NCBI GenBank assembly: GCA_902593945.1
Contig: CACJKA010000004.1
Span: 13,434-77,433, forward strand
Length of the DNA: 64,000 nucleotides
Source: an uncultured Candidatus Poseidoniales archaeon
GTDB taxonomy: Archaea > Thermoplasmatota > Poseidoniia > Poseidoniales > Thalassarchaeaceae
Reading direction: 5' to 3'
A program made the translations under genes and the position numbers. Below are positions 695 through 55,037 of this stretch, one piece after another (position 1 is the first letter of the stretch; every line of letters begins with the position of its first letter). Under the pieces are notes generated by a model. That model was not told the origin of the DNA. It was given only the letters and a program-made list of their open reading frames with translations, and made no database searches.

Positions 695-1270
695 TTAATT
701 ACCAGATTCAGTAATTTGCATCTTCTTAGGTTCCTTCAAGACAACAGCGAATAAACCACCTAGTAACAGGAAGAATACTCCGCAACAAGCTGTAGTCGCG
801 CCTCCTAATGCAGCAAAGAATCCACCAACGGCTTCTCCGCCTTCTTCTAGAATTATATCCCACATTGGCACAAGCTCATAATTTTCATTTGCATCAATAG
901 TATATTCGCCACTGTTATAATCCCAAGATGAAATAGTAGCCATGTGGTACCATCCGCTAGGATCATCCTCCCAGCCCCATGGTTTTTCACCATCATCTTC
1001 ACAGTCAGTCTTTAGATGATTTTCTCCGGTTTCATTTGTCATAGTAATAGTAAATTCATCACATCTCACATCATCACTAACCATTACAAGAATATCTTCG
1101 CCACTAAAAGAATAAGTTGTAGCCTCCGCAGATCCACTGAAATCACTCTTTTCTTCTACATCCCATTGTCCAGCATCGCTTATAGCTGCACCTCCGCCAA
1201 TCGTCATCACAACTCCTGCCAATGTAATTAACACTCCTAGGCCAAGAAAAATTTTACCTGCTATATGCAT
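695..1270 (-). CDS. membrane-anchored hypothetical protein (N- and C-terminal TM helices, acidic ectodomain)
   Basis: 191-aa ORF with hydrophobic N-terminus IFLGLGVLITLAGVVMTIGG and C-terminal TM CCGVFFLLLGGLFAVVL followed by basic residues. No recognisable catalytic motif. Confidence 0.5.
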   Translation of the reverse strand: MHIAGKIFLGLGVLITLAGVVMTIGGGAAISDAGQWDVEEKSDFSGSAEATTYSFSGEDILVMVSDDVRCDEFTITMTNETGENHLKTDCEDDGEKPWGWEDDPSGWYHMATISSWDYNSGEYTIDANENYELVPMWDIILEEGGEAVGGFFAALGGATTACCGVFFLLLGGLFAVVLKEPKKMQITESGN

Positions 1271-10690: not shown

Positions 10691-10757
10691 TATACCCATC
10701 TAAAAATATTGAGATATTATATGGAAAGTAGATTAATACAGGATACTTCCGTAAAAT

Positions 10758-11486
10758 ATGGAGGAGATATTACTCGTATCTTTAGGTGCCTTTTTTGCTG
10801 CTGCACTAACTGTACCTGCAGGTTTTGGTCTTTCCACAATACTAACTCCTTTGGTGCTTTTTTTACTGCCAGTTCATGAGGCAGTTGCAGTTGTAGCAGT
10901 GGTGCACTGTGCTCATAATGCTGGTAAATATGTTGCATTAAAAGAGGCAGTTGATTTTGAAGCGTTTAGAAGATATGGAATCTGGCTAGTTGTGGGATCT
11001 GTAATTGGAGCGTTGTTACAAAACCAAGTCCCTAATGATCCCCTACTCTTGTTAGTAGGGATATTCTTAGTAATATTACCTATTCTTACAATTAGTGAAA
11101 AATGGACGGGATATCGAATACCAGAAGCCAATGACAGATTAGGTGGTTTTGGTTCTGGGTTCATGGGGGGATTATCCGGCCATCAAGGAGCTCTAAGGGC
11201 GATGTTTCTTACAAGAAGATTGCCAGATAAGATGGCATATGCAGCAACAGCCAGTGTGTTAGCACTATGTGTAGATCTTTCAAGAATACCGGTATATTTC
11301 TTTTTCAGAACAGAAGAAATAGGTGATGAAATTACTCTAATAATTGTACTTGTAGTTTCGGCATTGATAGGTGTTAGAGTAGGGAAAAGATGGCTACAAT
11401 CTTTGAAATCAACTCATATTCATAACATGGTGATGTTTGGAATAATTTGTAGTGGAATGTTCTATATCTTTGAAGCGTTAAATTAA
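10758..11486 (+). CDS. TauE/SafE (TSUP, DUF81) family membrane transporter
   Basis: Polytopic membrane protein of 242 aa with a duplicated 4-TM architecture and GFGSGFMGGLSG / GALRAMFL motifs typical of TSUP. Confidence 0.7.
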   Translation: MEEILLVSLGAFFAAALTVPAGFGLSTILTPLVLFLLPVHEAVAVVAVVHCAHNAGKYVALKEAVDFEAFRRYGIWLVVGSVIGALLQNQVPNDPLLLLVGIFLVILPILTISEKWTGYRIPEANDRLGGFGSGFMGGLSGHQGALRAMFLTRRLPDKMAYAATASVLALCVDLSRIPVYFFFRTEEIGDEITLIIVLVVSALIGVRVGKRWLQSLKSTHIHNMVMFGIICSGMFYIFEALN

Positions 11487-39131: not shown

Positions 39132-39908
39132 ATGAGGGATTTTGAATTAGAAAAAATTCTCCAATCAACAATTGATAACGGGAACTCAGTTTGGGTTATT
39201 GGCGATATACACGGATACAATGAGACATTTGATGCATTAATTAAGAAATTAAGTATAACTGACCAAGATATTATTTTATGTTTAGGGGATTTAATTGACA
39301 AAGGCCCAGGAAGTTTAGAAGTTTTGAAAAAAGTTAGTGGCTCTAGTCAAATATTCTCTATTCGAGGAAATCATGAAGAAATGATGAGATTATCAGTTTC
39401 GCCTAAACACGGAAGAATGATGAAAAGTTGGCTTAAGTACGGAGGCCTAATTACTCTTGAATCATTTTCTAAAGATGAAACTAATCAAATCGAAGAAGCA
39501 AGAAAATGGTTATCATTTATTGAGAATCTACCTACTGAAATCGTTCTAGACAAATATAGAATAGTGCATGCCGGATATGATGATTCGGAACCTCTGGACG
39601 ATCAAAACAATCAACAAAAAATGTGGGGTCGTACAATTTTCCAGATAGAAAAATCTCTCGATAATAATAGACAAATTATTGTTGGGCACACACCTGTTCA
39701 GACTTTAAATCGTTTAGGTAAACAAGATATTTGGAAAAGCGAAATTAAATTGGTTGACAATCGTCCTTCTGTATTAGGTATTGATACAGGGGTGTTTCTT
39801 GAAGAAAAATCATGCCCAAGATTGACAGCATTGAATTTGACCGATGGTAAAATAATATCTCAAGAAAGGCTAGAGAATTACTTTTTTGATTCTCTAGCAA
39901 TTAATTAA
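39132..39908 (+). CDS. metallophosphoesterase (PPP-type Ser/Thr phosphatase / ApaH-like)
   Basis: VWVIGDIHGYNETF, CLGDLIDKGPGS, IRGNHEEMM, VHAG and VGHTP. Confidence 0.8.
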   Translation: MRDFELEKILQSTIDNGNSVWVIGDIHGYNETFDALIKKLSITDQDIILCLGDLIDKGPGSLEVLKKVSGSSQIFSIRGNHEEMMRLSVSPKHGRMMKSWLKYGGLITLESFSKDETNQIEEARKWLSFIENLPTEIVLDKYRIVHAGYDDSEPLDDQNNQQKMWGRTIFQIEKSLDNNRQIIVGHTPVQTLNRLGKQDIWKSEIKLVDNRPSVLGIDTGVFLEEKSCPRLTALNLTDGKIISQERLENYFFDSLAIN

Positions 39909-40020
39909 TATTCATTTCGAAACCACATTTTCGGCAACTACCATGAGTCCCCATTCCAAATTGTTTTACTAACAAACTAATACTTCCACATCCTGGGCAT
40001 TCTTCTTTCCATGAATTCAT
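39901..40020 (-). CDS. 39-aa zinc-ribbon mini-protein (not in ORF track)
   Basis: Hand translation gives MNSWKEECPGCGSISLLVKQFGMGTHGSCRKCGFEMNIN with a CxxC...CxxC ribbon. It overlaps the convergent stop of the phosphoesterase gene by 8 nt. Confidence 0.35.
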   Translation of the reverse strand: MNSWKEECPGCGSISLLVKQFGMGTHGSCRKCGFEMNIN

Positions 40021-40230
40021 GTAAATTAAAATCCTTAACTGTATATAAATTAGAAAATTTATCTATAATTAAAATTTAGAGATCTTAAACTATCGTCTTT
40101 ATCGAGTGCTGGATTAGGTGGGTCTAACAAGGCCCACTACGAACCCTCGAATTGAGATTAGATTATCAAACAGATTCTTATATCCAACCAACATCGTGAA
40201 TGAAGAAATATTTACTGAAATTATGTATGC

Positions 40231-43200
40231 CTAAAGATAGTTAAACTTCAAACAGTCAGTGATGCAAGTATCGGGATTCTCTAAAAAATCCGAGAAATGA
40301 AGCCTCGTCGTTTCGGCACAGTTTTCGAGAGCAATGGAAAAATCTCGCCTAAAATCAACGGGTTTCAGAGAACCTGCTCTTTTGGCCGCAAACTTCCTAC
40401 ATTTGGTATAACGCATATCTAAAGAACCATCTTTCTTATAATATTTGGAAGGTAGTTTCTCAGATTGTACTTCTAACTCATGAGCATTAGTATTATAGCG
40501 TCCCAAAAGGTCAATTAAATGTACATAAAAGATAGCTGCATAAACATCGTGATTTGCGATTTTCTCATGACTCCCAACTAATAACTTTAGGTCCTGAAAG
40601 TGTGTCTCTGTACTAGGAATGCCATATATCTCTGATAACCTCGCCATCCAATAAAATAATCGAATTTTCACAGGAAGAGGACTTTTAAGAGCAATTTTTC
40701 GTGCTTTCTGAATCAAATGTTCGCATTCATCTTTTTCGAGGGTATGGCTTTCGGAATCAGATCTCAATGAATGGTACTTCAAAGCAGCAGGCCACCAAAA
40801 TAGTTCCTCTTCTTCACCTTCTCCTGTGGCAAAATAATATTTTATATCTACAAATAAACGTTGATGTGCTTGCTCATACCACTTAGCATCATGCTGGGCA
40901 CAATCAATTGCGAACTCTCCGCCATAAATACAATGTCTTCTATTATCTCGCCGGTGTTTCCACTCAAACTTGGCCAAAACCTCATTGCTTTTCCATAGAG
41001 ACTCTCTCAATGAAGTATCTTTTAATCCTTGAAGCGCGAAAGAGGAGAAGAAAGTTCCTAAAATTGATAAATTCTTATTTGTCAAAGCACTCTTATCTTG
41101 TAAGATATTTTCCATGTCAGGAGGTGTTAATCTAGGATAATCAAAGATTCCACTTTCAGATAAAAGATTACTATCGGTATTAAAATCAAAGAAATTTTGT
41201 CTATTTGCAAAAATTAATCGCACTAAAGAAAGTTGATAACGTTCTGGACAAGTCTCGGGATTGAGCCAGTCTGGAGAGATTTGTTCGATAATCGGTGATA
41301 TATTCCCTCCTTGTTGTTCCGTTGCCCATCCTAATGTCAAGCACATATTTACACGGTCGCCATCAGTAGGTAATTGTTTCAACAATTCAGGGAGTTTTGG
41401 GACGGCCCAATTAGTAACCTGTTCAGCAATAATTCTTCCAGTATGTCTACTTTGCTCTTGCTCCATTAATTTGTTAAAACTAACCCAATCAATTGGTGAA
41501 AAGCGTTCACATGCGTGATGAATCATTCCGGAAATAATATGATTCATGTATGCATACACGTCTTTACTATCTAATCCGCACAATCGTTCTAAAAACGAAA
41601 TCGGTTTTTTACTAAGAAGTTCCGCTAACTTCGGGAAATCATTATTCAAGAAACTAAGATGTATTGGCAAAATCTTGATTGAATCATTTATTTTCTTTTC
41701 GATATTTTCTAGAGACTTTGGCAAGGAGTCATTGGTCATGAAACCCATGGCATCTGCGTATGGTAACCAAGGGTGATCCAACTTTCCAACGATTTCATGA
41801 CCTTTAATCCTAAATTTCCCTCGACCTCTTGCGGACACGTGGTCAAAGTAGTCATGCCCAATCATATTGAGGAAGCCCTTAGATGGATTCGCCCCTGTTT
41901 CTAACCATCCCCATTGTTCAGATATGGTACTTATTACACACTCAAAATCGTCATTTTTAATCGTATGTTGGCTAATATACTCAAAAAGGAGAGGTAAAGT
42001 GGCCTTCAAAACGGTTGCTGATGGAGATATATTTCCATCAGACATTTTTTCATCATCATCTAAATACTTGTCCGCCTCGAAAATAAAAGTGATCAACCTT
42101 GGCTCGGGAGCTTCGACTAGATTATTAAGCACTCGAATGTGTTCTCTTCCAAAATACTCCTGGTCCATCGCGTGAAAATCTGAAGCAATCTGTGTTGGAA
42201 ATATTTCCGGAGGAATTAATACCCAAATGTAAGCAAATTTTTTCGCATTTTTATTTCTAATTAGCACATTCGATTTGATTAATTCTTTTCCTACACCCGT
42301 CTCATCTCCAAGAAGTAACCATCGATTTGAGGGATGATGCGGTTTCTTCCAATCGTCCAAAAGATATCCCAATGCGAGGTCGTGAACAAGTCCACGAGCA
42401 GAATGAAACCAACAGAATCCAAAATTTTGATTCCTCAACGTTGCCTTTGGAGGCATGTAAATAGGGAAACTTCTAACATATGCAGCACCTTTCTCAGGTT
42501 TAATCCCTGAAGGAGGCCCCTCATCAACATAAGCCAAACACCAAGACCGAATATATTTGTAGGTAGTTGGCCATTTTGATTCCTTGTCTTTTATGTCAAA
42601 CACAATCTTGAAACCTAATTTTCGGGAGACATTTTCCATTGCTTTGATAAAATCAGGCTCAGAGTGCCATTCATTAACCAATCCAACTAAACTCATTGGG
42701 AGTTTTTGAAGGTCAATATCTCCCTTTTCATCCATAATTGCGCCCCTAACCTGCTCTTCAATTTGTTGCAATTTCTTTTGACAGGAAATGACTAAAGGAA
42801 TTGGTAAATCTTCCCGTAGGGGGAGGGAAGGAATGCCAGTTGAGATGTGATTTGGTAATATGCGTCCACCATCATCGTATGTGTACGAATCAAATCGAAT
42901 ACTATTTCCCACAACAAGAGTTCCATCAATATTCGTGCTATCGCTTTTTTTTATCACAAATTGCGGAAATCCGGGGGAGACTCCCCAGTATACATTTGTG
43001 CGCTCATGCGTGATAACGCCTGCTCGAAAAGATTGTTCTGCGGGCGACTCCTTATCAATTGATTCCGACCATGCTAGAAATATTTCTGCAAGAGAATAAA
43101 ATTTATCCTTCGGAGAATTGAGTGTGATTCGAAACATTTCTGCAAGTTTTGTTAAAGGCCAAGATAAATATCCACCTATCTTACCATTCGGCTTAACCTT

Positions 43201-43956
43201 CAATTTTTCTAATAGCGATGGTGTAAAGTATCTAAATAATAACTTTTTTTTCCCATCTTTGTTCGACCACTTGAATAGAGAAGTGGGATCAATCAAGATT
43301 GATTCGAACCTTTCATGTAGAGCATCTTTTTCTGATTGGGTCATTTCTACATCTTCTTCAGCCTTTACCTTCTTTTTTGGCCCAGAAGTTCTTGTTTGTT
43401 GTTGCTGTGGCTTCTGTTGCTGTGGCTCCTGTTGCTGTTGCTCTTTTGGTACAGGCTTTTGGGTTGCCAGCCATTCATCAAAGGGTTGCTTATTCCCCTC
43501 TTTCAGTTTATCAAATATTTCCGGTGGAATCTGCGTTTTTCGCCCGACTTTTTTGTTCTTCTCATTTATTGCATTCCTGGCAGTCTCAGGGAGACGGTCT
43601 CTTGACCTTCTCCTTGCCTTTCTCTTCATCACACCTCCGGCGGCTTTCAGATCCTCAACGGATAGGCTGGATTCCTCGATGGGAGTCGGTGGGGGCGTTT
43701 TTTCCTCCACTTCGATTATTATCCAGTATTGTTCGTCCCGACGATTGCTCATCCCAAACTCCCTCCAGCGAATTTGAAAGTTGATTTGCGTCGTTTTAAT
43801 AGCCTCGAGCCATTTACTCCTGACTTTTTTCCCAAATGAAAAAACTTTTGTATCAATCTCAATATTATCATGATCGAATGTTAACCTATTGTTTTCTAAA
43901 TCCAATTCAATTAAATCGGGGGAGATATTCTCAAAACTCCACTTTATTGCCGCCAC
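40231..43956 (-). CDS. 1241-aa orphan protein (GTG start) with a basic/Q-rich disordered linker and no recognisable catalytic domain
   Basis: Uninterrupted 3.7-kb ORF, the longest in the window. Residues ~90-210 are low complexity (KRKARRRSRDR; QQQQEPQQQKPQQQQ; KKKVKAEED). A DUF3800-like RWLLLGDETG element lies mid-protein, but the resemblance is weak. The plus-strand ORFs at 43118-43784 are antisense shadows. Confidence 0.7.
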   Translation of the reverse strand: MAAIKWSFENISPDLIELDLENNRLTFDHDNIEIDTKVFSFGKKVRSKWLEAIKTTQINFQIRWREFGMSNRRDEQYWIIIEVEEKTPPPTPIEESSLSVEDLKAAGGVMKRKARRRSRDRLPETARNAINEKNKKVGRKTQIPPEIFDKLKEGNKQPFDEWLATQKPVPKEQQQQEPQQQKPQQQQTRTSGPKKKVKAEEDVEMTQSEKDALHERFESILIDPTSLFKWSNKDGKKKLLFRYFTPSLLEKLKVKPNGKIGGYLSWPLTKLAEMFRITLNSPKDKFYSLAEIFLAWSESIDKESPAEQSFRAGVITHERTNVYWGVSPGFPQFVIKKSDSTNIDGTLVVGNSIRFDSYTYDDGGRILPNHISTGIPSLPLREDLPIPLVISCQKKLQQIEEQVRGAIMDEKGDIDLQKLPMSLVGLVNEWHSEPDFIKAMENVSRKLGFKIVFDIKDKESKWPTTYKYIRSWCLAYVDEGPPSGIKPEKGAAYVRSFPIYMPPKATLRNQNFGFCWFHSARGLVHDLALGYLLDDWKKPHHPSNRWLLLGDETGVGKELIKSNVLIRNKNAKKFAYIWVLIPPEIFPTQIASDFHAMDQEYFGREHIRVLNNLVEAPEPRLITFIFEADKYLDDDEKMSDGNISPSATVLKATLPLLFEYISQHTIKNDDFECVISTISEQWGWLETGANPSKGFLNMIGHDYFDHVSARGRGKFRIKGHEIVGKLDHPWLPYADAMGFMTNDSLPKSLENIEKKINDSIKILPIHLSFLNNDFPKLAELLSKKPISFLERLCGLDSKDVYAYMNHIISGMIHHACERFSPIDWVSFNKLMEQEQSRHTGRIIAEQVTNWAVPKLPELLKQLPTDGDRVNMCLTLGWATEQQGGNISPIIEQISPDWLNPETCPERYQLSLVRLIFANRQNFFDFNTDSNLLSESGIFDYPRLTPPDMENILQDKSALTNKNLSILGTFFSSFALQGLKDTSLRESLWKSNEVLAKFEWKHRRDNRRHCIYGGEFAIDCAQHDAKWYEQAHQRLFVDIKYYFATGEGEEEELFWWPAALKYHSLRSDSESHTLEKDECEHLIQKARKIALKSPLPVKIRLFYWMARLSEIYGIPSTETHFQDLKLLVGSHEKIANHDVYAAIFYVHLIDLLGRYNTNAHELEVQSEKLPSKYYKKDGSLDMRYTKCRKFAAKRAGSLKPVDFRRDFSIALENCAETTRLHFSDFLENPDTCITDCLKFNYL

Positions 43957-44224
43957 GAGAGTTGCTATTTCCAGTTACTTATCAAATACTCTACTAATTC
44001 ACTATGATTTTCAAGATGAACGCATCAAATGGTTGCAGGACTTTGATATTCAAAAGAGGTTTGATCGACTTGATTGCAACTTATGCGCAACTAGTTATGG
44101 CCTTTGATGAGACGAACAAATAGCAGATTTGAGAAAGCGAAAACGTCTGAATAACTAAGATCAAATTCATAATTGTACAAATGCCAGGGCATCCATTGTT
44201 GGTATCGAGTTAATCAATTCTTAC

Positions 44225-44253
44225 TTTATATACAGATAGTATATTGATTAGTC
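44225..44253 (+). promoter_or_regulatory. island promoter copy 1: TATA box TTTATATA 21 nt upstream of the ATG (leaderless)
   Basis: ctTTTATATAcagatagtatattgattagtcATG. TATA at 44225-44232 and ATG at 44254. Confidence 0.55.
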
Positions 44254-44832
44254 ATGCCAGAAAAAATTAGGATGAATAACCCACGAAGAAACCTTTTGCA
44301 ATTATTACGTAAGAGTGTACCAGCCGGTACTTATCACGTAGATCGTGATGCTCTACGTAAAGCTAGAGCAAAAGTGCCCAAGGGAGAATACCATGTAGAT
44401 CGTGATGCTCTACGTAAAGCTAGAGCAAAAGTGCCCAAGGGAGAATATCATTCTAAACATGCGAAGGAAATTTTCTTTCTACACGATATAAGGGAAATTA
44501 AGTATGCCAACCGAGAGGGCTATATTTATGCTAATGAAAAATTCATAGATCCCGACGGTAGAGAATATGAATTACACTACTATACGAATTATGATGGAAC
44601 CAATGCTAATGCATATTGTATATCTAATCCTTGGGACAGTGCAAATCGTTCTGCTGGAACAGATTATTTCTCTTCTCATATTGATGACGATGGATTTCTA
44701 TGTCTTGCTGAAAATTCATGTAGGTCAACCAAGGAATCTCCTTATGGTCTAGAATATGCAATTTTGAGAGCAAGGTTTTGGGCAGTTGGATTTTCAAGTT
44801 TTATGGAAACAGGCACTTTCCCAAATGCTTAG
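44254..44832 (+). CDS. E2 (UBC)-like small protein, paralog 1, with N-terminal 19-aa tandem duplication
   Basis: The C-terminal core YELHYYTNYDGTNANAYCISNPW...SSHIDDDGFLCLAEN...ILRARFWAVGFSSFMETGTFPN is shared with 44844..45242 and 49087..49851. H-x3-DGFLCL resembles the UBC HPN...G-x-I-C-L active-site region. Confidence 0.5.
   Translation: MPEKIRMNNPRRNLLQLLRKSVPAGTYHVDRDALRKARAKVPKGEYHVDRDALRKARAKVPKGEYHSKHAKEIFFLHDIREIKYANREGYIYANEKFIDPDGREYELHYYTNYDGTNANAYCISNPWDSANRSAGTDYFSSHIDDDGFLCLAENSCRSTKESPYGLEYAILRARFWAVGFSSFMETGTFPNA
44332..44445 (+). repeat. in-frame tandem duplication, 2 x 57 nt
   Basis: Units 44332-44388 and 44389-44445 differ only at two synonymous positions (tat/tac, cac/cat). 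They encode YHVDRDALRKARAKVPKGE twice. Confidence 0.9.
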
Positions 44833-44843
44833 AGGTGATTATT

Positions 44844-45242
44844 TTGACTGAAAAATCAATTTCTGATAAAATTATGGATTGTATAAACCCTCATGCTCTG
44901 AAAGGCAGAGAAGGAAATAATGCAGTATATATCGAAGATGTATGGGATTGTCAGGAGGACGCCCGAATATACAGGATTGAATATGTGTCTACATTAGATG
45001 GGAGGCATGCTATAGCTTACTGTCGTTCCAATCCCTGGAACCGAACAGAGGTAAATTGTGGGTATTCATTTTCATCAGGGCACGTTCATAGCGATGGATT
45101 CATTTGTATAGGCGGCAATTCAGGCTATAGCAGAAATGCTTCCGAATCTAATTTAGATCTAAATACTGTTGTTGAGAGGGCAAGGTTTTGGTGTCTCGCA
45201 TTTAGTGTACTAAAAGAAACAGGTAATTTTCCACAACCATAG
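44844..45242 (+). CDS. E2 (UBC)-like small protein, paralog 2
   Basis: YRIEYVSTLDGRHAIAYCRSNPW...SSGHVHSDGFICIGGN...VVERARFWCLAFSVLKETGNFPQP. The start is set at the TTG at 44844, 5 nt after the SD-like AGAGGTGA (44831-44838). The track start at 44778 lies inside the previous gene. The ATG at 44874 is an alternative. Confidence 0.5.
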   Translation: MTEKSISDKIMDCINPHALKGREGNNAVYIEDVWDCQEDARIYRIEYVSTLDGRHAIAYCRSNPWNRTEVNCGYSFSSGHVHSDGFICIGGNSGYSRNASESNLDLNTVVERARFWCLAFSVLKETGNFPQP

Positions 45243-45247
45243 GAGAG

Positions 45248-46210
45248 ATGAATATGTCAAAAAATAGCGAAAAAAACAACAAACGAAGAGATATAATAAA
45301 GATTGACCACAATTTGAGTAAATTCAAGAATCGAGTATTCGTCAGAAGATATCCTGCTGGTGATAGATCTGATTTGGAAATGTGTTTCAGCCCCAAAGCG
45401 CTCAAAAGATGCCTCGAAACAGTTGGTTCAAAAAGACCTGAAACTGGGGCAAAAGGTTTCTCTGCAGTAATTTCTGATAATCCGGACGAGAATACAGTAA
45501 GAATTGGCTTCGATATCATAGAATATGATAAGATTGGTTCCCAAAATGCAAGCGGTGTAATGTATAGTCCAAATTTGGAGTGGAGTACTCAAAGGGTCAA
45601 TTACCATATGGGTGCCAAAGATGGTCGTTTTTGGGTAGGGGATATTCATAGTCATCCCGGCTATAGTGGCAAGCCATCGGGCGATTACGGAGATGGTAGA
45701 GGTGATTTGGGATATGTAAGAAAAATCTTTGAAACTTATCCATTCCCATTAGATTTTTTTCTTTTACCTATAATTACTCTTGAAGATGGAAAAATTATAA
45801 TTCATCCTTGGATAATCGACAGGAAAAACCCCACCAAACCTCTACTCGCTAAAGTAAGAGTTTGTGATCCTTCTAACTTCCCTGTAGTGGAACTATCTGA
45901 TACGGTGGCTAATCTAGCCCCAACTATTGACGGAATGTATGATTTATTTAACGACCAATCAGATAGAATAGATGAACTCGAAAAGATGATTGAAGAACTT
46001 CAGAAGTTGGTAAATGATAAACTCTCAAAGCAGCTCGAGTCTAGACTTGCTGAAGAGAGGGATATGAAGAAAGATCTAGCGGAGAAGGCTGAATACGATA
46101 CCCGAACTGAGGCATCTGTTCCCAAAGAAGAGTTTGCTGAACGGGAAGAAAAAGAGTCAAGCGATTCGCGCTCGGACTATCAATGGGCATTTGCAGCTTT
46201 GGAGGTATAA
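45248..46210 (+). CDS. JAB/MPN+ (JAMM) metalloprotease with long acidic coiled-coil tail
   Basis: Upstream Glu in KRPETGAKGF and JAMM core GDIHSHPGYSGKPSGDYGD (HxH-x7-S-x-D). SD-like AGGAGAG precedes the start. The C-terminal 100 aa are E/K-rich coiled coil. Confidence 0.7.
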   Translation: MNMSKNSEKNNKRRDIIKIDHNLSKFKNRVFVRRYPAGDRSDLEMCFSPKALKRCLETVGSKRPETGAKGFSAVISDNPDENTVRIGFDIIEYDKIGSQNASGVMYSPNLEWSTQRVNYHMGAKDGRFWVGDIHSHPGYSGKPSGDYGDGRGDLGYVRKIFETYPFPLDFFLLPIITLEDGKIIIHPWIIDRKNPTKPLLAKVRVCDPSNFPVVELSDTVANLAPTIDGMYDLFNDQSDRIDELEKMIEELQKLVNDKLSKQLESRLAEERDMKKDLAEKAEYDTRTEASVPKEEFAEREEKESSDSRSDYQWAFAALEV

Positions 46211-46212
46211 GA

Positions 46213-47121
46213 ATGACTAGGAAAGATGTACCAGATAGTGAAAAATATGAATGTTACAGATCTCGACTCAATGGGGTAATATCTACTTCGTTTTCGAAAA
46301 AACGCATATTAGTTATTGGAACAGGTGCCGGTTCAATAATGTGTATTAATTTAGCTCGGCAAATGCCTGCAAAATTGACTTTAGTGGATTTTGATGAGGT
46401 AGAATTGCATAACCTCAGCCGAACCGCGTTCGGTTACAGCGATATAGGGAAAAAGAAAGTCAACGCACTTAAAGAAAGGATATTAGATGCAAACCCTTTC
46501 ATTTCTGTAGAATGTGTCGATTATGATGTTACAAGCTTAGATAATAAGAAAATGGATTTTCTATTTGATGTTGATATGATTATTGCAGGCACAGACTCTG
46601 CTAAAGCACAGCGTTTCATTAACGAAAAATCACTTCACTACCAAGTCCCGGCTATTTTTATTGGGATTCATCAACGAGGAAGAGGTGGCAGAATTACATT
46701 TGTAGAGCCAGGACAGGCTTGCTATAGATGTATTAGGCCTGATAGATATGAAGAAGATTTGGAACAAGAACTAGATCTTAATGGAGAGACTGGAAGTCTT
46801 TCGTCGTGTCAATTAATTGATAATTTAGCAATGGATATCCTGATTTCATTTTTGGAAAAGAATGAAAATTCCGAATTTGGAGGTAAATGGGATTTAACAT
46901 ACAAAAACAGTAATGATTTTGAAATTCAATTATCCCATATGTCAGAATTAGAAGCTACTTTTGATGTGATACATGATAGTGCCCAGCACGTAGACCAAAA
47001 TCACCGCCAAGAATTAGATAAATTATTTGCAGGTCCACGTATCATTACTTATCAAGAACCTAAAAAAGAAGACTGTCCGTGCTGTTCTTCTGTTGAAATG
47101 GAAAATCTCTTATTGAGATAA
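46213..47121 (+). CDS. ThiF/MoeB/E1-like adenylyltransferase
   Basis: Rossmann loop ILVIGTGAGSIMC, LVDFDEVELHNLSRTAF (Arg finger), DIGKKKVNALKERILDANP and IAGTDSAKAQRFIN. Two Cys pairs, CYRC and CPCC, form a Zn-site-like pattern. The start is set at the ATG at 46213 after GGAGGT. The track start at 46183 overlaps the JAB gene. Confidence 0.8.
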   Translation: MTRKDVPDSEKYECYRSRLNGVISTSFSKKRILVIGTGAGSIMCINLARQMPAKLTLVDFDEVELHNLSRTAFGYSDIGKKKVNALKERILDANPFISVECVDYDVTSLDNKKMDFLFDVDMIIAGTDSAKAQRFINEKSLHYQVPAIFIGIHQRGRGGRITFVEPGQACYRCIRPDRYEEDLEQELDLNGETGSLSSCQLIDNLAMDILISFLEKNENSEFGGKWDLTYKNSNDFEIQLSHMSELEATFDVIHDSAQHVDQNHRQELDKLFAGPRIITYQEPKKEDCPCCSSVEMENLLLR

Positions 47122-47136
47122 TATCTAATTAATTTC

Positions 47137-47165
47137 TTTATATACAGTTAGTAATATGTATAGGT
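47137..47165 (+). promoter_or_regulatory. island promoter copy 2: TTTATATA 21 nt upstream of an ATG
   Basis: aatttcTTTATATAcagttagtaatatgtataggtATG. 19 of 24 positions between the TATA and the ATG are identical to copy 4. Confidence 0.55.
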
Positions 47166-47231
47166 ATGACTACGCAAATTAATGCTATAATGACTCTAGA
47201 AGAAGTAACTACAATGGAGGAAGAGCAATGA
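47166..47231 (+). CDS. 21-codon leaderless mini-ORF (speculative)
   Basis: The ATG sits at the predicted transcription start of promoter copy 2. It encodes MTTQINAIMTLEEVTTMEEEQ. Its stop overlaps the next start (caATGa at 47228-47231). Confidence 0.25.
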   Translation: MTTQINAIMTLEEVTTMEEEQ

Positions 47232-47671
47232 ATAATAAGAATGAAATCCCACAGGAATTAATGGATGAAAAGCTAGCAGAGATAAGTATAACTACGAGTC
47301 TTCTGAACACACCAGAGACCGATATGAGATTCGGTATCAAGGGTACGTTTAATCTGTTTTCGACTGGTATGAAGGCTAATTATGGAATACCCGATTTAGA
47401 AATGCGCGGTATTCCTGGAATGCTAATAAATTCCGCTGCTCAGACCATTAATGAAATAAATGCCTGCAGATTAATTCCCGATCAACTAATTCTTGTGAAT
47501 CAGAAAATAACTTGGACACACGGTGACATACTAACAGAACAAGGAGACGATTGGGATGGCGGAGTGAAGTGGAAAGCGGAAGATATGATTCGCCTGACCA
47601 GTGCTCAAACCACAATAGACCAGACCACTTGTGAATGCTGTGAATCCAAAAGGGCAGGAATTGATGAATAA
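47228..47671 (+). CDS. hypothetical protein, DUF4262-like
   Basis: FSTGMKANYGIPDLEMRGIPGMLINSAAQTINEIN resembles the DUF4262 pattern (Y.vGl...g.PEl...GlP......ll). C-terminal CECC and an acidic end ...AGIDE. Confidence 0.35.
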   Translation: MNNKNEIPQELMDEKLAEISITTSLLNTPETDMRFGIKGTFNLFSTGMKANYGIPDLEMRGIPGMLINSAAQTINEINACRLIPDQLILVNQKITWTHGDILTEQGDDWDGGVKWKAEDMIRLTSAQTTIDQTTCECCESKRAGIDE

Positions 47672-47687
47672 TCTAGAAAATTATTTC

Positions 47688-47716
47688 TTTATATAGAGTT
47701 GAATGGAAGTATTGTT
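47688..47716 (+). promoter_or_regulatory. island promoter copy 3: TTTATATA 21 nt upstream of the ATG
   Basis: ttatttcTTTATATAgagttgaatggaagtattgttATG. The spacing argues for the ATG at 47717 rather than the TTG at 47699. Confidence 0.55.
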
Positions 47717-49084
47717 ATGTTTACAGAAGAAGAATTAACGGAGTTTGAAGAGGAAGGAAGCTTGCTTATCGAAAGAATGGAATTGCAATCGGACTTCAAT
47801 CCACAAATTACTGACTTATTGATAGAAAAATCAGAAGATTTGCCAGGAATAATAGAAGTTTTCATCGACTCCCGTGTTGACTATGGAGGTAATAACACGA
47901 TACTTTCTGACATAATTCAAGGACCAGAGTATGAGTTTGCTGGAGACTGTAGAAGGGTATTACTGATTTCTTGCGACCTAACTGAAATAGGTGAAGAATT
48001 GATCGATATGGATTTATTAACAGGAAATAGAGTTTCTAAAAGTGAAACGATTAATCACACGATCGCATTACCGGAAGTTGATGAAATAACAGATTTAAAA
48101 AAGATTAACAAAAGTATTGCTAAATCAGATTTTGAAAGAATTATTCTAAACCCAAAACAAATCAAAGATTGCCTTGGAAAGAAAATAATCGGTCAAAAAC
48201 AACCTGTTCGAGTGATAGCTAATACATTATCTTCTCATATTGCCAAAACAGCACCTTCGCGCCCCTTAGTATTCTTTGCATTAGGGCCTACAGGCGTTGG
48301 AAAAACTCGAACCACAGAAGTAATTCCTAGTATTATCAAGGAACTCGAAGAGGGCCTGTCAGTTGGCCATTTAAGATTTGATATGAATGAATTCAAAGAA
48401 AATCATAGGGTCAGTCAGATTCTTGGCGCCCCCCCTGGTTATGTAGGTTATAGCCCGAAATCCATAGTTTCGGACGTTGTCGAGTCAAATGATATCACCG
48501 TCCTCGTATTTGATGAAATAGAAAAAGCCCACCCTGACTTCCTTCAGGTTTTGATGAATGCGATTGATACAGGAAGGCTGTCTACCGGTTCCGGAACAGT
48601 TAATCTTCGTAAATCAATAATTATGTTCACGTCTAATATTGGAGTAAATGAAGGTGTTAATTGGACCCAAGAAAATGCGGAGGAAACAGATCAGTTCGAA
48701 ATTAATCAGCATTGTCGTGGCCTACTTATCGAGCAAGGTGTCCCGATAGAGATAGTCGGCCGAGTCCAAGATTTCTTACTATACGGGACTTTAACTCAGA
48801 AACATAGAGCCGAAATTCTCGTACAATCAATTCAGGAGTATCTAGCTGAGTTTGAATTAAATGTACAGCATATAGATCCTGATTTGATTATTAATTTTCT
48901 TAATTCCAAAGGATTATCATCGCCGTTTGGTGGCAGGCAATATCGAGCGGCAATAGGCGAATCTTTACAGCCAGAAATAAATAATTTCTTCTCTCAAAAT
49001 CCGTCTTATAGAGGTCCTATATTTATTGATGTATCCGGTACTATTTCAATATCTCAACCGCTAGGGCAATCGGAGGAGGAATAA
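47717..49084 (+). CDS. single-module ClpA/ClpB-D2-type AAA+ ATPase with an acidic N-terminal domain of unknown fold
   Basis: IIGQKQPVRVIANTL...RPLVFFALGPTGVGKTRTTEV (Walker A), RFDMNEFKENHRVSQILGAPPGYVGY, VLVFDEIEKAHPDFLQVLMNAIDTGRLS (Walker B / sensor region) and IIMFTSNIG. No second AAA module or middle domain. Confidence 0.8.
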   Translation: MFTEEELTEFEEEGSLLIERMELQSDFNPQITDLLIEKSEDLPGIIEVFIDSRVDYGGNNTILSDIIQGPEYEFAGDCRRVLLISCDLTEIGEELIDMDLLTGNRVSKSETINHTIALPEVDEITDLKKINKSIAKSDFERIILNPKQIKDCLGKKIIGQKQPVRVIANTLSSHIAKTAPSRPLVFFALGPTGVGKTRTTEVIPSIIKELEEGLSVGHLRFDMNEFKENHRVSQILGAPPGYVGYSPKSIVSDVVESNDITVLVFDEIEKAHPDFLQVLMNAIDTGRLSTGSGTVNLRKSIIMFTSNIGVNEGVNWTQENAEETDQFEINQHCRGLLIEQGVPIEIVGRVQDFLLYGTLTQKHRAEILVQSIQEYLAEFELNVQHIDPDLIINFLNSKGLSSPFGGRQYRAAIGESLQPEINNFFSQNPSYRGPIFIDVSGTISISQPLGQSEEE

Positions 49085-49086
49085 AA

Positions 49087-49851
49087 ATGTCTCAAATAAA
49101 ATCTAAGAAACCGAATTATAAATTCCCATGTAAGGCAGTTAGAAGATACCGTAATTCCGGCGGTCTTGGTAAATTTAAAATGATGAGTAAAAGAAAAGTA
49201 TCCTTTTCTGAGAAATATTCTCTTAATGGTACTAATTATACGATCGAAATAATCAGTACTGGTTTCGGCGACAAAGCTATTTCCACAATAACTAATCCGA
49301 ATATCAAGGCCAACGAAAAAGGAATTAATGAAGACGGCATTATAATTTTAGATTTCGATACCTTGACTCCTAATTTGAAAAATTCAACTACGGATATTAT
49401 CGATACCTGGTATAGGGCACGATTTTGGTGTTGGGCTAGAGAAAACAACTGTGACGTAAACTCTCGGGCCGCTTGGACATTTTTCAAAAATAGCGACCCA
49501 TCAGGACAGGAGGGTAATAATTGGTCATATGAAAAATCCCAAAGGTTTGAGAAATTTTACGAAGATATAAACGTGGGAGGGTATTATTTAACCATAACAT
49601 ATGTATCTACTGAATGCGGCGAATATTCTCTTTCCTATTGCCGCGATGGTCTCGATTATATTGACGACGGAGTAAATAGTGAAGACGGCCATTTATTTCG
49701 TTCCGGGACTATTTGTTTAGGTTATTCTAGTGGTGGAAACAGTGGGGTTTATGATTCAGGTCAGCCACTAGAATGGGTAATACCACGATCCAGATATTGG
49801 GCAGTTGCATTTGCTTATTGGTGCGAATATGGCAATTGGATGGATCCTTGA
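49087..49851 (+). CDS. tandem E2-like protein: N-terminal Cys-less (UEV-like) copy plus C-terminal Cys-containing copy
   Basis: N-half: YTIEIISTGFGDKAISTITNP...INEDGIIILDF...TWYRARFWCWAREN. C-half: YLTITYVSTECGEYSLSYC...GHLFRSGTICLGYS...IPRSRYWAVAFAYWCEYGNWMDP. Both halves align with the 44254 and 44844 cores. Confidence 0.5.
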   Translation: MSQIKSKKPNYKFPCKAVRRYRNSGGLGKFKMMSKRKVSFSEKYSLNGTNYTIEIISTGFGDKAISTITNPNIKANEKGINEDGIIILDFDTLTPNLKNSTTDIIDTWYRARFWCWARENNCDVNSRAAWTFFKNSDPSGQEGNNWSYEKSQRFEKFYEDINVGGYYLTITYVSTECGEYSLSYCRDGLDYIDDGVNSEDGHLFRSGTICLGYSSGGNSGVYDSGQPLEWVIPRSRYWAVAFAYWCEYGNWMDP

Positions 49852-49912
49852 TTGCAAAAAGAAGATTCATAAAGGACATCCTGCTAGCCTGTAATGGATT
49901 CATCCCTCGCGA

Positions 49913-50953
49913 ATGCGCGATTATGAATGCCAACACGAGCCCCTTAACCGGGGAGTATATACTAGCGAAAGCCAGAAATCACATTACTGCGAGCAATGTG
50001 GTTCAACCGAAACCCCAGAAAGAAATGAAATAAGAGGTGAAATTTTCTGCCCTACTTGTGGTATGATTTCTGTTGAGAAACTGTATGATGAACTTAATCC
50101 AAAAACTCATGCAAATACTAATGATAATAACTCTGGGAGAGGCACTCTCGGCCCTTCAAAACCATTCGGAATAAAAGATCATACGGGGGCGGCAATCTCG
50201 TCAAAACATAGGAAGAAATGGGCACGTTTGAATAAAATTAACACAACTATCCACAGGGATGCTGAAGATAGTAATAAGGTAGTCGAAGAGAGCATCGAAC
50301 AATTGAAAAAACTCAATTATACACTGAGTAAAAGTAAAGAGAAAGAGTATCGTAAATTATTGATGGACACATTGAAAACCAAGGAGGGAGATAACCTGTT
50401 TAAGACGGGCACTCAATACAATGCTATTGCTTGTGCATTGGTTCTACATTCCGATATTGATAGAAGGATGTTTTTCGAAATGTTAAGAGATTATGCGAAA
50501 GCGAATAATTTGGATAAAAGAGCGAAAAAGAGTATAAGAAGAAGAGGTTTGCAAATCAGAGGAATTTTGAATAGTAAATTGGGCAACCATTCTAATCAAC
50601 GAGCCCCAGTATATCCCCATATAATAGATGTTAATAGCAGACCTAGTGAAATCCATGAAGCTTTTATCGCGCAGTGGTGGGGGAAGAAGATAGGTGCCAT
50701 TAGGACGTATTCGGAACCTCCAAAGTATCATGTAATTATCAAATTAATTAATACAATTTTAGACAAACCAGAGATATTAGAATTAAAAGGTGGTGAGATG
50801 CTAGAACCTATTTTAGATGCTTGCTTACTAATATCTATGACTCATAATTGTCCTTCAAGGACATCAGGTAATGTTACGGAAAAACTCTCATTGACAGCTA
50901 AGTCAAGAAACTATAGTGTCCGCTTGAAGACTTTCTTGGATCAAGATTGTTGA
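49913..50953 (+). CDS. TFB/TFIIB-like transcription factor paralog
   Basis: N-terminal zinc ribbon CEQCGSTETPERNEIRGEIFCPTCGMI (TFB pattern CPECGS...D..GE.VC..CG.V) and a linker resembling the B-reader/linker region (KDHTGAAISSKHRKKWARLNKINTTIH). 346 aa with a helical C-terminal region of cyclin-fold size. Confidence 0.55.
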   Translation: MRDYECQHEPLNRGVYTSESQKSHYCEQCGSTETPERNEIRGEIFCPTCGMISVEKLYDELNPKTHANTNDNNSGRGTLGPSKPFGIKDHTGAAISSKHRKKWARLNKINTTIHRDAEDSNKVVEESIEQLKKLNYTLSKSKEKEYRKLLMDTLKTKEGDNLFKTGTQYNAIACALVLHSDIDRRMFFEMLRDYAKANNLDKRAKKSIRRRGLQIRGILNSKLGNHSNQRAPVYPHIIDVNSRPSEIHEAFIAQWWGKKIGAIRTYSEPPKYHVIIKLINTILDKPEILELKGGEMLEPILDACLLISMTHNCPSRTSGNVTEKLSLTAKSRNYSVRLKTFLDQDC

Positions 50954-50957
50954 TTTC

Positions 50958-50986
50958 TTTATATACGGTTAGGGAGATGTATAGGC
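50958..50986 (+). promoter_or_regulatory. island promoter copy 4: TTTATATA 21 nt upstream of the ATG
   Basis: tgatttcTTTATATAcggttagggagatgtataggcATG. Confidence 0.55.
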
Positions 50987-52276
50987 ATGTCAGCCAAAAT
51001 TGATAGTAGTGTAAAACCAGAAGATGCAGTAACTTGCCCAGATTGTGGGGCCGAATTCGATATAGCAGATCGTTTACGATCACATATTGAGTCCAGTATT
51101 AGAATAGAAATGGCACAAAAATATGAAGAAGAACGTGAGAATGACTTAGCTATCCACAACGCAGAAATTGAAAAACAACGTGCCCAGATCAATGATCTCC
51201 GCAAAGCTAAGATTGATTTTGATAACTTATTGGCAGAACAGGATATTGCCATTCAAGAGGCTAAGGCTCAGGGGGCCATAGATAAGGCCAAGGAAATGTC
51301 TTCCGAACTCAACATACTCCGTCAAACCAAAATAGATCATGATAACTTATTGGCAGAACAGGATATTGCCATTCAAGAGGCTAAGGCCCAAGGTGCTAGA
51401 GAAGCAATGAAATTAGCTAATCAAGGACTTGAAGAAAAGGTGTCCCAAAGAGCAAAAGAAATAACTTCAGAAAAAGATTTAGAGATTAGTAGACTTGAAC
51501 TCGAAGCAACGAGAAAGAACGAGATTATAGAAAGACTTCAACAACAGTCAAAGTCTGGCGAACTAGAGGGAGAAGTGCTTGAGTTAGCGGTCGAAAATCA
51601 ACTCCGAAACTTACATCCAAGAGACAATATTAAGGAAGTCAAGCGTGGAAATTATGGTGCAGATATTGAACAGTCTGTGCTGACGAATACTGGCAGTATT
51701 GCAGGAAAGATACTCTGGGAATGCAAGAAACATAAGAAATGGCAAAACTCCTGGCTTAATACAATTAGAAAAAACGCATTAGAATTCAATGCAGATACAA
51801 TGGTTATAGTCACCACCACTATGCCAAAAGGGATGGAAACATTCGGTAAAATAGATGATGTATTTATCTGTAAATATTCTGAAGTTCCAGTAGTTTCTCA
51901 GCTACTGAATCATGCAGTGTTGAAAGCTCATCGAGATAATCAAAGAGGAGAACACATGATGTCAATCCATGAGAGAGTATCAGAATATATCAGCGGTCCA
52001 GAATTCGCTATGTTGATGCGTGTTGTGATTAAGGCATACGAGGACTTTGAGGATGATCTAAGAAAAGAGGAGCAGTATATGAAGACTAGATGGAAATCCC
52101 GTCGTATCTATCTAAGTGAAGTGATAGACTCACTTTCTTCACTGGCTGGAAAATTAGAATATCTAGGGGCAGGCCATTTTGAAGTAATGCAAGAAATAGG
52201 AAGTCAAGTTCCTCCTGCGTTGCCCGAACCTGTAATAATAGAGGATATCGAAATAGAGGAGGTTGAAGAGGAATGA
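50987..52276 (+). CDS. DUF2130-like protein: zinc ribbon, coiled coil and PD-(D/E)xK-like C-terminal domain
   Basis: N-terminal CPDCGAEFD, a long coiled coil with an internal duplication, and a C-terminal GADIEQSV...GKILWECKKHKKWQNSWLNTIRKNALEFNADTMVIVTT, as in DUF2130 (G.D....ilwE.K....W...W..KL......a...vlV). Ends in EEVEEE. Confidence 0.6.
   Translation: MSAKIDSSVKPEDAVTCPDCGAEFDIADRLRSHIESSIRIEMAQKYEEERENDLAIHNAEIEKQRAQINDLRKAKIDFDNLLAEQDIAIQEAKAQGAIDKAKEMSSELNILRQTKIDHDNLLAEQDIAIQEAKAQGAREAMKLANQGLEEKVSQRAKEITSEKDLEISRLELEATRKNEIIERLQQQSKSGELEGEVLELAVENQLRNLHPRDNIKEVKRGNYGADIEQSVLTNTGSIAGKILWECKKHKKWQNSWLNTIRKNALEFNADTMVIVTTTMPKGMETFGKIDDVFICKYSEVPVVSQLLNHAVLKAHRDNQRGEHMMSIHERVSEYISGPEFAMLMRVVIKAYEDFEDDLRKEEQYMKTRWKSRRIYLSEVIDSLSSLAGKLEYLGAGHFEVMQEIGSQVPPALPEPVIIEDIEIEEVEEE
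51221..51387 (+). repeat. in-frame internal duplication, period 120 nt
   Basis: The 47-nt stretch gataacttattggcagaacaggatattgccattcaagaggctaaggc occurs identically at 51221-51267 and 51341-51387. It encodes DNLLAEQDIAIQEAKAQGA twice. Confidence 0.9.
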
Positions 52277-52473
52277 AAACCATAATGAGTAGTATGACAC
52301 AAAGTGTATACGCCAAGAAAAGAAAGAACGGTGGTAAGCCCCGAACTTTTATCGGCGGTATACGAATGAACTACTCTAAGTATAAAGATTAAAGACAGAA
52401 AGTTTGGCGGTATACCAATTTAATATATTCTCTCTGGACAAAAACCTCATTTGTAACACCCAAATCACAGAAC

Positions 52474-54726: not shown

Positions 54727-54782
54727 AGTATTTACAAGGTAGATAAATCAATTAAGCAGTTTTAACTCTTGCTTAGGAAGAA

Positions 54783-54797
54783 TTTTTTTTATTTTTT
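54783..54797 (+). terminator. oligo-T tract (T8-A-T6), archaeal intrinsic-terminator-like
   Basis: ttttttttatttttt lies 57 nt after the stop of the last island gene. Confidence 0.5.
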
Positions 54798-54908
54798 ACG
54801 TGGCGCATTTGAACGACCCTTACCCGAGGGTCTACCAGTAGTACTAGGCCTATTTGCTCTGTTAGATTTAGCTATTTAATCACCTCCTTTTTACTTGAAG
54901 AATTGGGT

Positions 54909-54974
54909 GGTGGTAGAGAGTGTTATGACAAAAGAGACAAACAACACGAATATACCCACTAACTCTCTACCACC
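54909..54974. other. 13-bp perfect inverted repeat with 40-nt spacer at the island edge
   Basis: ggtggtagagagt (54909-54921) and actctctaccacc (54962-54974). A competing helix tacccact/agtgggta overlaps the right arm. Confidence 0.6.
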
Positions 54975-55037
54975 GTCACAGGAGATAAGTGGGTACATCG
55001 ATATACTATTGACTTAAGAGTATATAAAATATGAAAA

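Follow-up and report, generated by a model that had tools for sequence, protein, structure and literature searches.

We wanted to understand why a single octamer, TTTATATA, recurs at one fixed distance upstream of ATG codons in a variable gene cluster of an uncultured archaeon, and whether these repeats are promoters. The cluster lies in a 64-kb window (by which we mean the whole stretch of DNA that was analyzed, with positions counted from its first letter) taken from a contig of 109,517 bp. An initial reading of the letters and ORFs (open reading frames), hereafter the sequence-only reading, had pointed to four copies of the octamer, each followed by exactly 21 nucleotides (nt; the spacing N21) and then by an ATG that opens an ORF, and had proposed that they head four co-regulated, leaderless transcription units. 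The window encodes a thermosome, and its housekeeping proteins matched protein clusters that carry the name Candidatus Thalassarchaeaceae or Euryarchaeota archaeon; judged by these proteins, the host is an archaeon of the Thalassarchaeaceae (Marine Group IIb, order Poseidoniales). The strain-variable region in which the copies occur, hereafter the island, is bounded by a metallophosphatase gene (39132-39908) on one side and by the PPS_PS and NadC genes (from 55038) on the other. As detailed below, we consider it very probable that the copies represent real, well-conserved archaeal core promoters, which most likely give leaderless transcripts.

The window contains six exact TTTATATA octamers, all of which fall within 40.0-55.0 kb. 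Copy 1 (44220..44256, + strand) consists of CTTAC, the octamer (44225-44232), 21 nt, and ATG 44254, with C at position -1 and no Shine-Dalgarno sequence, and it precedes the first E2-like gene (44254-44832), behind which the second E2-like, the JAB-like, and the E1 genes follow. In copies 2 (47132..47168), 3 (47683..47719), and 4 (50953..50989), all likewise on the + strand, ATTTC stands directly before the octamer (47137-47144, 47688-47695, and 50958-50965, respectively), and 21 nt separate the octamer from ATG 47166, 47717, or 50987. Copy 3 leads into the AAA+ gene (47717-49084), the double E2-like gene (49087-49851), and probably the gene for a protein resembling transcription factor B (TFB-like gene), and copy 4 would drive the DUF2130 gene (50987-52276). 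The first A of ATTTC in copy 4 is the last base of the TGA stop codon (50951-50953) of the TFB-like gene. The two remaining copies are on the - strand. Copy 5 (40018..40054) has the octamer at 40049..40042, followed by 21 nt and ATG 40020, which opens an ORF for a 39-residue zinc-ribbon protein (40020..39901); this gene is called in the related locus L122 (loci from related islands are given here by L numbers), where its promoter is identical. In copy 6 (54996..55033), the octamer (55028..55021) is followed by 21 nt, an additional G, and ATG 54998 (i.e. N22), with a purine directly after N21 that is preceded by C; in the L123 counterpart of copy 6, the spacing is exactly N21. Hence, the sequence-only reading gave the coordinates and spacing of the four + strand copies exactly but missed the two octamers on the - strand, and, although an ATG does follow N21 in all four of its copies, the ORF behind copy 2 has 21 codons only.

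The octamer by itself is not enriched in the window (6 observed compared with 6.8 expected). The composite TTTATATA-N21-ATG was observed five times compared with 0.11 expected, and none of 100 shuffled windows reached five. The four-copy family was also retrieved by an independent repeat search (family D1). The longer form ATTTCTTTATATA has exact matches in the window at copies 2, 3, and 4 only, as the sequence-only reading had it for ATTTC, and at these three copies the element begins 0-16 nt after the stop codon of the upstream gene.

Measured from the A of the ATG, the octamer spans positions -29 to -22 and is centered at -25.5 in five copies, the sixth being shifted by 1. In leaderless archaeal genes, the promoter box lies ∼26 nt upstream of the start, and all 11 of the 11 Thermoplasmata genomes surveyed were placed in the leaderless-rich class named "group D" (PMC6028130); in Haloferax volcanii, 72% of transcripts are leaderless, i.e. 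have a leader of 0-5 nt (PMC4983044). Further, position -1 is a pyrimidine (C or T) and position +1 a purine in every variant of the motif. Where the ATG is displaced, as in copy 6 of the window (N22) and before the first gene of L086 (N23), the pyrimidine-purine step still comes directly after N21. That it is kept there despite the displaced ATG indicates that the predicted start is fixed relative to the box, with a leader of 0-2 nt. We therefore agree with the sequence-only reading that the geometry is a leaderless one, given an archaeal host, a box centered at -25.5, a pyrimidine at -1, and no Shine-Dalgarno sequence. Mechanistically, the perfect TATA box and the fixed 21-nt spacer would form a strong core promoter, from which RNA polymerase would initiate on the A of the ATG, or 1-2 nt earlier, and the resulting mRNA would be leaderless. 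Scans for bacterial σ70 promoters and intrinsic terminators revealed no enrichment, as expected because the host is archaeal.

The spacing also bears on the choice of start codons. The sequence-only reading had used it to argue that the start of the AAA+ gene should be re-annotated to 47717; this start is already the public call (P0001, 455 residues, 100% identity and coverage). For the first E2-like gene, the spacing rule favors ATG 44254 over the public start, which is 18 nt downstream.

To what extent are the octamer and its spacing conserved? Related islands were taken from marine metagenomes, and the AAA+ proteins of these relatives are 82-91% identical to that of the window. For the AAA+ and DUF2130 promoters, we obtained 12 sequence-distinct variants (six each), and all 12 have the exact TTTATATA, N21, and a pyrimidine at -1. 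The spacers of the same variants differ at up to ∼10 of the 21 positions, and their upstream flanks are unrelated. Comparison of homologous loci, to which the sequence-only reading had looked for support, thus shows octamer and spacing to be invariant. Further, the copy 1 promoter is identical in L122, and copy 2 is conserved in L122-L128, L140, and L150. More distant loci provide a contrast that supports the promoter reading. The AAA+ ortholog in L082 (71% identity) begins at the same ATG and has no TATA box there but GAGGA 7 nt upstream, and, in the distant L121 locus (58% GC), GGAGG precedes every gene.

We next consider whether the box is simply what this host places before its genes. Among the 42 host ORFs outside the island, only one (695..1270, - strand) has a box, matching at 7 of 8 positions, at leaderless spacing; the other ORFs have no box or only 6/8 matches at alternative starts, and the A/T-rich boxes of the thermosome gene and of both tRNA genes are of a different, weaker kind. 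Within the window, therefore, the box is not a generic host promoter. The claim that the motif does not occur outside the island fared well insofar as all octamers fall within 40.0-55.0 kb, but the sixth is situated in conserved backbone beside PPS_PS. Because this copy is kept in the backbone whatever the cargo of the island, the motif is not strictly a property of the cargo.

Further scans extended the search beyond the window. In the metagenome collection of the Joint Genome Institute (JGI), the pattern TTTCTTTATATAYRGTTR-N15-ATG had 20 matches, 11 of which precede orthologs of the AAA+, DUF2130, or copy 2 ORFs; eight precede no real ORF, and one precedes an unrelated ORF. As this pattern was built from the island's own promoters, the result shows only that the extended form occurs in no other gene family. 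In viral contigs, ATTTCTTTATATACNGTT had 25 single matches, none with N21-ATG, which is chance level and gives no tie to known viral contigs. The sole match to the extended pattern that lies outside such islands and has a long ORF is at 7897-8624 of L154 (contig Ga0208019_1000095, 43.5 kb); this contig appears viral or mobile, its first ORF being primase-like and several small paralogs ending in NYRGG.

The sequence-only reading had taken ATTTC to occupy the position of the B recognition element (BRE). At this position, copies 2-4 and their orthologs have ATTTC, CTTTC, ATTTG, or ATTTA, and copies 1, 5, and 6 have CTTAC, TCTAA, and CATAT, respectively, without ATTTC. For comparison, a known purine-rich BRE is CGAAA (PMC4983044). 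The placement of ATTTC before copies 2-4 thus stands, but ATTTC is pyrimidine-rich and unlike such purine-rich BREs. We also considered GAAAT, the reverse complement of ATTTC, which is BRE-like; it was rejected as a canonical BRE because its side of the TATA box is the wrong one whichever strand is read.

Genes behind the motif and genes inside the cluster differ in their translation signals. No Shine-Dalgarno sequence precedes the genes behind the motif, and the internal genes at 45248, 46213, 47228, 49087, and 53701 have GGAG, GGAGG, or GAGG 2-11 nt upstream. The three internal junctions, at which 33-45 nt separate a stop codon from the next ATG, contain no run of five or more T residues. 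The four copies on the + strand are therefore best regarded as internal promoters nested in a single cluster rather than as the heads of four separate units as originally proposed. Between genes of the cluster, the + strand has a single oligo-T, T8AT6 (54783..54797), which is likely the common terminator of the nested transcripts. The four + strand promoters would thus be arranged head to tail, each supplying a leaderless transcript in addition to read-through from upstream, and translation of most genes within each unit would depend on stop/start overlaps or on GGAG(G) Shine-Dalgarno sites.

Copy 2 merits separate consideration because its ORF (47166..47231, + strand) is a relic. Its 21 codons encode MTTQINAIMTLEEVTTMEEEQ followed by a stop, GGAGG is present inside it, and its stop codon overlaps the start of the next gene (ATGA). 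The spacers of copies 2 and 4 are identical at 16 of 21 positions, or at 19 of 24 with the ATG included, as the sequence-only reading had counted. The similarity continues into the coding sequence: over +3 to +48, copies 2 and 4 are identical at 24 of 45 positions in the window (30 of 45 when L125 is compared with L124) and fall to background beyond, and the repeat search found the pair as a 75-nt repeat at 72% identity (D5). The relic ORF corresponds to the N-terminal ∼15 codons plus the C-terminal tail of a DUF2130 paralog, and DUF2130 in L123 has at its 3' end exactly the tail of the relic, GGAGGAAGAGGAATGA. Homology that reaches into the coding sequence, together with a DUF2130-like tail, indicates that the relic is a duplicated DUF2130 unit from which the gene body was deleted. 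Shared regulation alone thus does not account for the likeness of copies 2 and 4, which stems from a segmental duplication reaching ∼45 nt into their coding sequences.

The gene that follows the relic (47228..47671, + strand) encodes a protein of 147 residues with unknown function and is led by a Shine-Dalgarno sequence, GGAGG, 7 nt upstream. It is absent from L081, L085-L094, and L120, in which a single promoter lies between the E1 and AAA+ genes; as far as the compared loci indicate, it behaves as a cassette that is present in some relatives and not in others. Copy 2 arose by duplication of the DUF2130 promoter unit followed by internal deletion of the gene, and we propose that retention of the 21-codon leaderless ORF, with its stop overlapping the 147-residue gene's start, would allow a promoter that is bound to its ATG to express a foreign gene. 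If so, a leaderless promoter may be re-used for another gene by keeping a relic ORF and coupling the new gene to its stop.

A comparable arrangement is seen behind DUF2130 itself, where a basic 39-residue ORF (52273..52392, + strand; MKTIMSSMTQSVYAKKRKNGGKPRTFIGGIRMNYSKYKD) has its start overlapping the DUF2130 stop codon (ATGA), like the coupling of the relic to the 147-residue gene. Downstream of DUF2130 in L123 and L140, we found a 41-residue ortholog and a 50-residue paralog, with K.KP..F.GGI as the common motif. In L140, an independent internal deletion of DUF2130 has left a relic of 23 codons. The 23-codon ORF was considered as a case of promoter capture by a new gene, and this was rejected, as it is an internal DUF2130 deletion that keeps the downstream small gene.

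Several points weigh against reading the copies as leaderless promoters. The transcription start site is placed by geometry, and promoter strength, read-through, and translational coupling are likewise inferred. Host promoter usage was judged on ∼50 kb of flanking sequence. The promoter families are not fully independent of one another as samples, given that copies 2 and 4 are paralogous and that most relatives are close. At the BRE position, the sequence is pyrimidine-rich, unlike known archaeal BREs. Literature searches for promoter or start-site data from Marine Group II or Poseidoniales, and for DUF2130, gave nothing useful. Finally, a Shine-Dalgarno sequence and a TATA box at N21 are both missing from two internal genes, the TFB-like gene (49913) and the gene for a 406-residue protein (52474), so that these fit neither class.

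Could the repeats instead be chiefly the scars or substrates of recombination between cassettes, conserved through recent common descent and not for promoter function? The 147-residue cassette does lie between direct repeats (copies 2 and 3), and cassette-free relatives have one junction; over 75 nt, copies 2 and 4 are genuinely paralogous; internal deletions of DUF2130 recur, as in L140; and the cargo of the island differs among strains. However, an exact TATA box, an exact 21 nt to an ATG, a pyrimidine at -1, and the lack of a Shine-Dalgarno sequence all persist while the neighboring positions change, and a scar would have no need of them; also, roles in transcription and in recombination are compatible. 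We regard recombination as the main role of the repeats as highly unlikely. It is scarcely credible that the T-rich ATTTCTTTATATA element is chiefly a terminator or attenuator of the upstream gene, with the downstream genes served by read-through or by other starts. Archaeal terminators are U-rich tracts, and a position 0-16 nt past the upstream stop codon would suit one, but the element has T runs of 3+3 only, no T5+ run is found at the junctions, the fixed N21 to the ATG would be left unexplained, and copies 1, 5, and 6 have neither ATTTC nor a close co-directional upstream gene.

An alternative of a different kind concerns which factor reads the promoters. The TFB-like gene (49913..50953, + strand) encodes a divergent TFB/TFIIB-like protein of 346 residues, and this protein might read the promoters of the island via ATTTC and/or via yAGTTA, a conserved sequence shortly behind the TATA box, and the cluster would then be semi-autonomous from the host TFB. 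A profile of seven homologs matched the TFIIB-type zinc ribbon of Pyrococcus furiosus TFB (1pft) at E=4.7e-6 and residues 22-117 of yeast TFIIB at E=0.014; the protein itself matched PF08271 at 3.8e-4, below the cut-off of that family, and NF001658 over residues 18-106 at 1.2e-4. For the core (cyclin-fold region), there was no match at the sequence level, the zinc ribbon alone being recognizable by sequence. An AlphaFold2 model (pLDDT 72, pTM 0.38) is all-helical from residue 100, and in a Foldseek search of the PDB, TFIIB and its relative Brf1 fill the first 11 ranks and Pyrococcus TFB takes ranks 15 and 17, although the scores are weak (best E 5.9e-3; TM 0.22-0.40). A phmmer search of 1.84 billion proteins gave six representative clusters and no canonical TFB.

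The zinc ribbon and the best structural matches, which are of the TFIIB/TFB type, thus favor such a reader, as do the lack of this box on the host genes of the window, the conservation of ATTTC though it is unlike known BREs, and L082, where neither the TFB-like gene nor the TATA-N21 promoter is present. However, the fold is weakly supported, the co-occurrence comes from one lineage, a perfect TATA box requires no special factor, and copy 6 is retained in the backbone whatever the cargo. Further, a homolog in the distant L139 (55% GC; 9747-10823) is found without E1, E2, and AAA+ genes and without such promoters; it stands beside homologs of the 406-residue protein (26% identity) and of a 1241-residue protein of the island (23% identity), a grouping that suggests a conserved three-gene association apart from the E1/E2/JAB/AAA+ module, and the primary partnership of the TFB-like protein therefore appears to be elsewhere. 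Recognition of the promoters by this protein is, in our view, unlikely, and it is correspondingly doubtful that the island carries its own initiation module composed of a divergent TFB paralog and an island-specific extended promoter (ATTTC, perfect TATA, and yAGTTA). If it did, expression of a defense-type cluster would bypass the host TFB or compete with it, for instance once host transcription has been subverted by a virus. Archaea may have extra TFB or TBP paralogs, such as the multiple TFBs of haloarchaea, some of which are plasmid-borne. The island resembles these cases in that a TFB-family protein is encoded near genes with a common distinctive promoter, but its protein is far more divergent, and the tie to the promoters is conjectural. 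As for the TFB-like gene itself, a weak TTCATAAA box is situated 39 nt upstream of its ATG (within 49860-49912) and at the same distance in L120 (3090-3142), with the intervening sequence diverged, and it may be a separate, leadered promoter of this gene.

Overall, we favor leaderless core promoters of the general archaeal kind. In type, the promoters are textbook archaeal; the instance is new for an uncultured lineage and is unusually clean. Like the leaderless units of H. volcanii and Sulfolobus solfataricus, those of the island have a TATA box at a fixed distance, a start 0-2 nt from the ATG, and first genes without a Shine-Dalgarno sequence. The island differs from the haloarchaeal units in that its box is a perfect TTTATATA in place of a weak TTWT and its upstream element is ATTTC and not CGAAA-like, and it differs from the units of both organisms in that the box is not seen on host genes in the same window and in that the host is an uncultured member of Marine Group IIb. 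With the "group D" pattern of GeneMarkS-2, the island has in common that the first genes, at TATA-N21, have no Shine-Dalgarno sequence and most internal genes have GGAG(G). Its "first genes", however, are arranged head to tail, 33-45 nt apart, and the promoters are internal to the cluster and not at the head of an operon. For the Marine Group II archaea, which abound in the surface ocean but are uncultured, the locus provides a promoter grammar supported by comparison: TTTATATA is followed, after 21 nt, by a pyrimidine-purine initiator at the ATG, and most internal genes have Shine-Dalgarno sequences. Such a grammar can guide the annotation of start codons, as at 44254, and exposes the small ORFs at 40020 and 52273.

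The island is hypervariable and defense-like, and the PPS_PS flank is the same in other contigs, but the genes adjoining it differ. The products of the region are a 1241-residue protein (- strand), two E2-like proteins, a JAB-like protein, a ThiF-type E1, the 147-residue protein, the ClpB-like AAA+ protein, the double E2-like protein, the TFB-like protein, DUF2130, and proteins of 406 and 341 residues. The E1 has a ThiF-type adenylation domain (PF00899 5.2e-32; PADLOC E1-E2 2.1e-23); ATG 46213, which like its L120 counterpart has GGAGGT 6 nt upstream, is a likelier start of this gene than ATG 46183 of the longer ORF. The PADLOC matches for E2 (2e-4, in the C-terminal half of the 49087 protein) and JAB (7.7e-3, the 45248 protein) are weak, and no ubiquitin-like protein was identified, although no search aimed at one was made. 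The JAB-like protein and E1 are fused into a single protein of 608-614 residues in several relatives, and a Prok-JAB+ThiF fusion is found in the distant relative L121. The AAA+ protein resembles DolB and PDC-M37B; a scan of genome contigs with this protein gave only generic bacterial ClpB-like matches and no relatives of the island, and an exact look-up of the DUF2130 protein gave no match. With its ThiF-type E1, weak E2 and JAB matches, AAA+ protein, and strain-variable locus, the island resembles operons for Cap2/Cap3 of the cyclic oligonucleotide-based antiphage signaling system (CBASS) and Bil-type E1/E2/JAB operons. Unlike in these systems, the host and the promoter logic are archaeal, and the likeness concerns the cargo and not the motif.

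The minus-strand element behind copy 6 (∼225 nt; 54999..54775) is conserved beside PPS_PS in contigs with different island cargo. Its conservation extends beyond an ORF for a hydrophobic 35-residue protein, the stop codon of which is lost in L123, and it holds a perfect 13-bp hairpin and a GGAGGTGAT stretch. A search of Rfam with this element gave no match, and its folding z-score was -0.4. It could be a non-coding RNA or, given the 35-residue ORF, the gene of a small membrane protein.

The 1241-residue protein (40231-43956, - strand) has no Pfam or PADLOC match and contains a Q/P-rich low-complexity stretch near residue 180. An TTTGATAA box lies 22 nt upstream of its GTG start; with this weaker box, the gene may form one more leaderless unit. 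A C-terminal (R)AR(F/Y)W...F motif, also found in the repeat search, recurs at 44749-44793, 45159-45203, and 49768-49812 (+ strand), i.e. in the two small E2-like genes and the double E2-like gene, which indicates at least four paralogous E2-like domains in the island, one of them with the weak PADLOC E2 match. Within the first E2-like gene, a 57-nt tandem duplication (98% identity, 2.0 copies; 44338-44451, + strand) doubles 19 residues (VDRDALRKARAKVPKGEYH).

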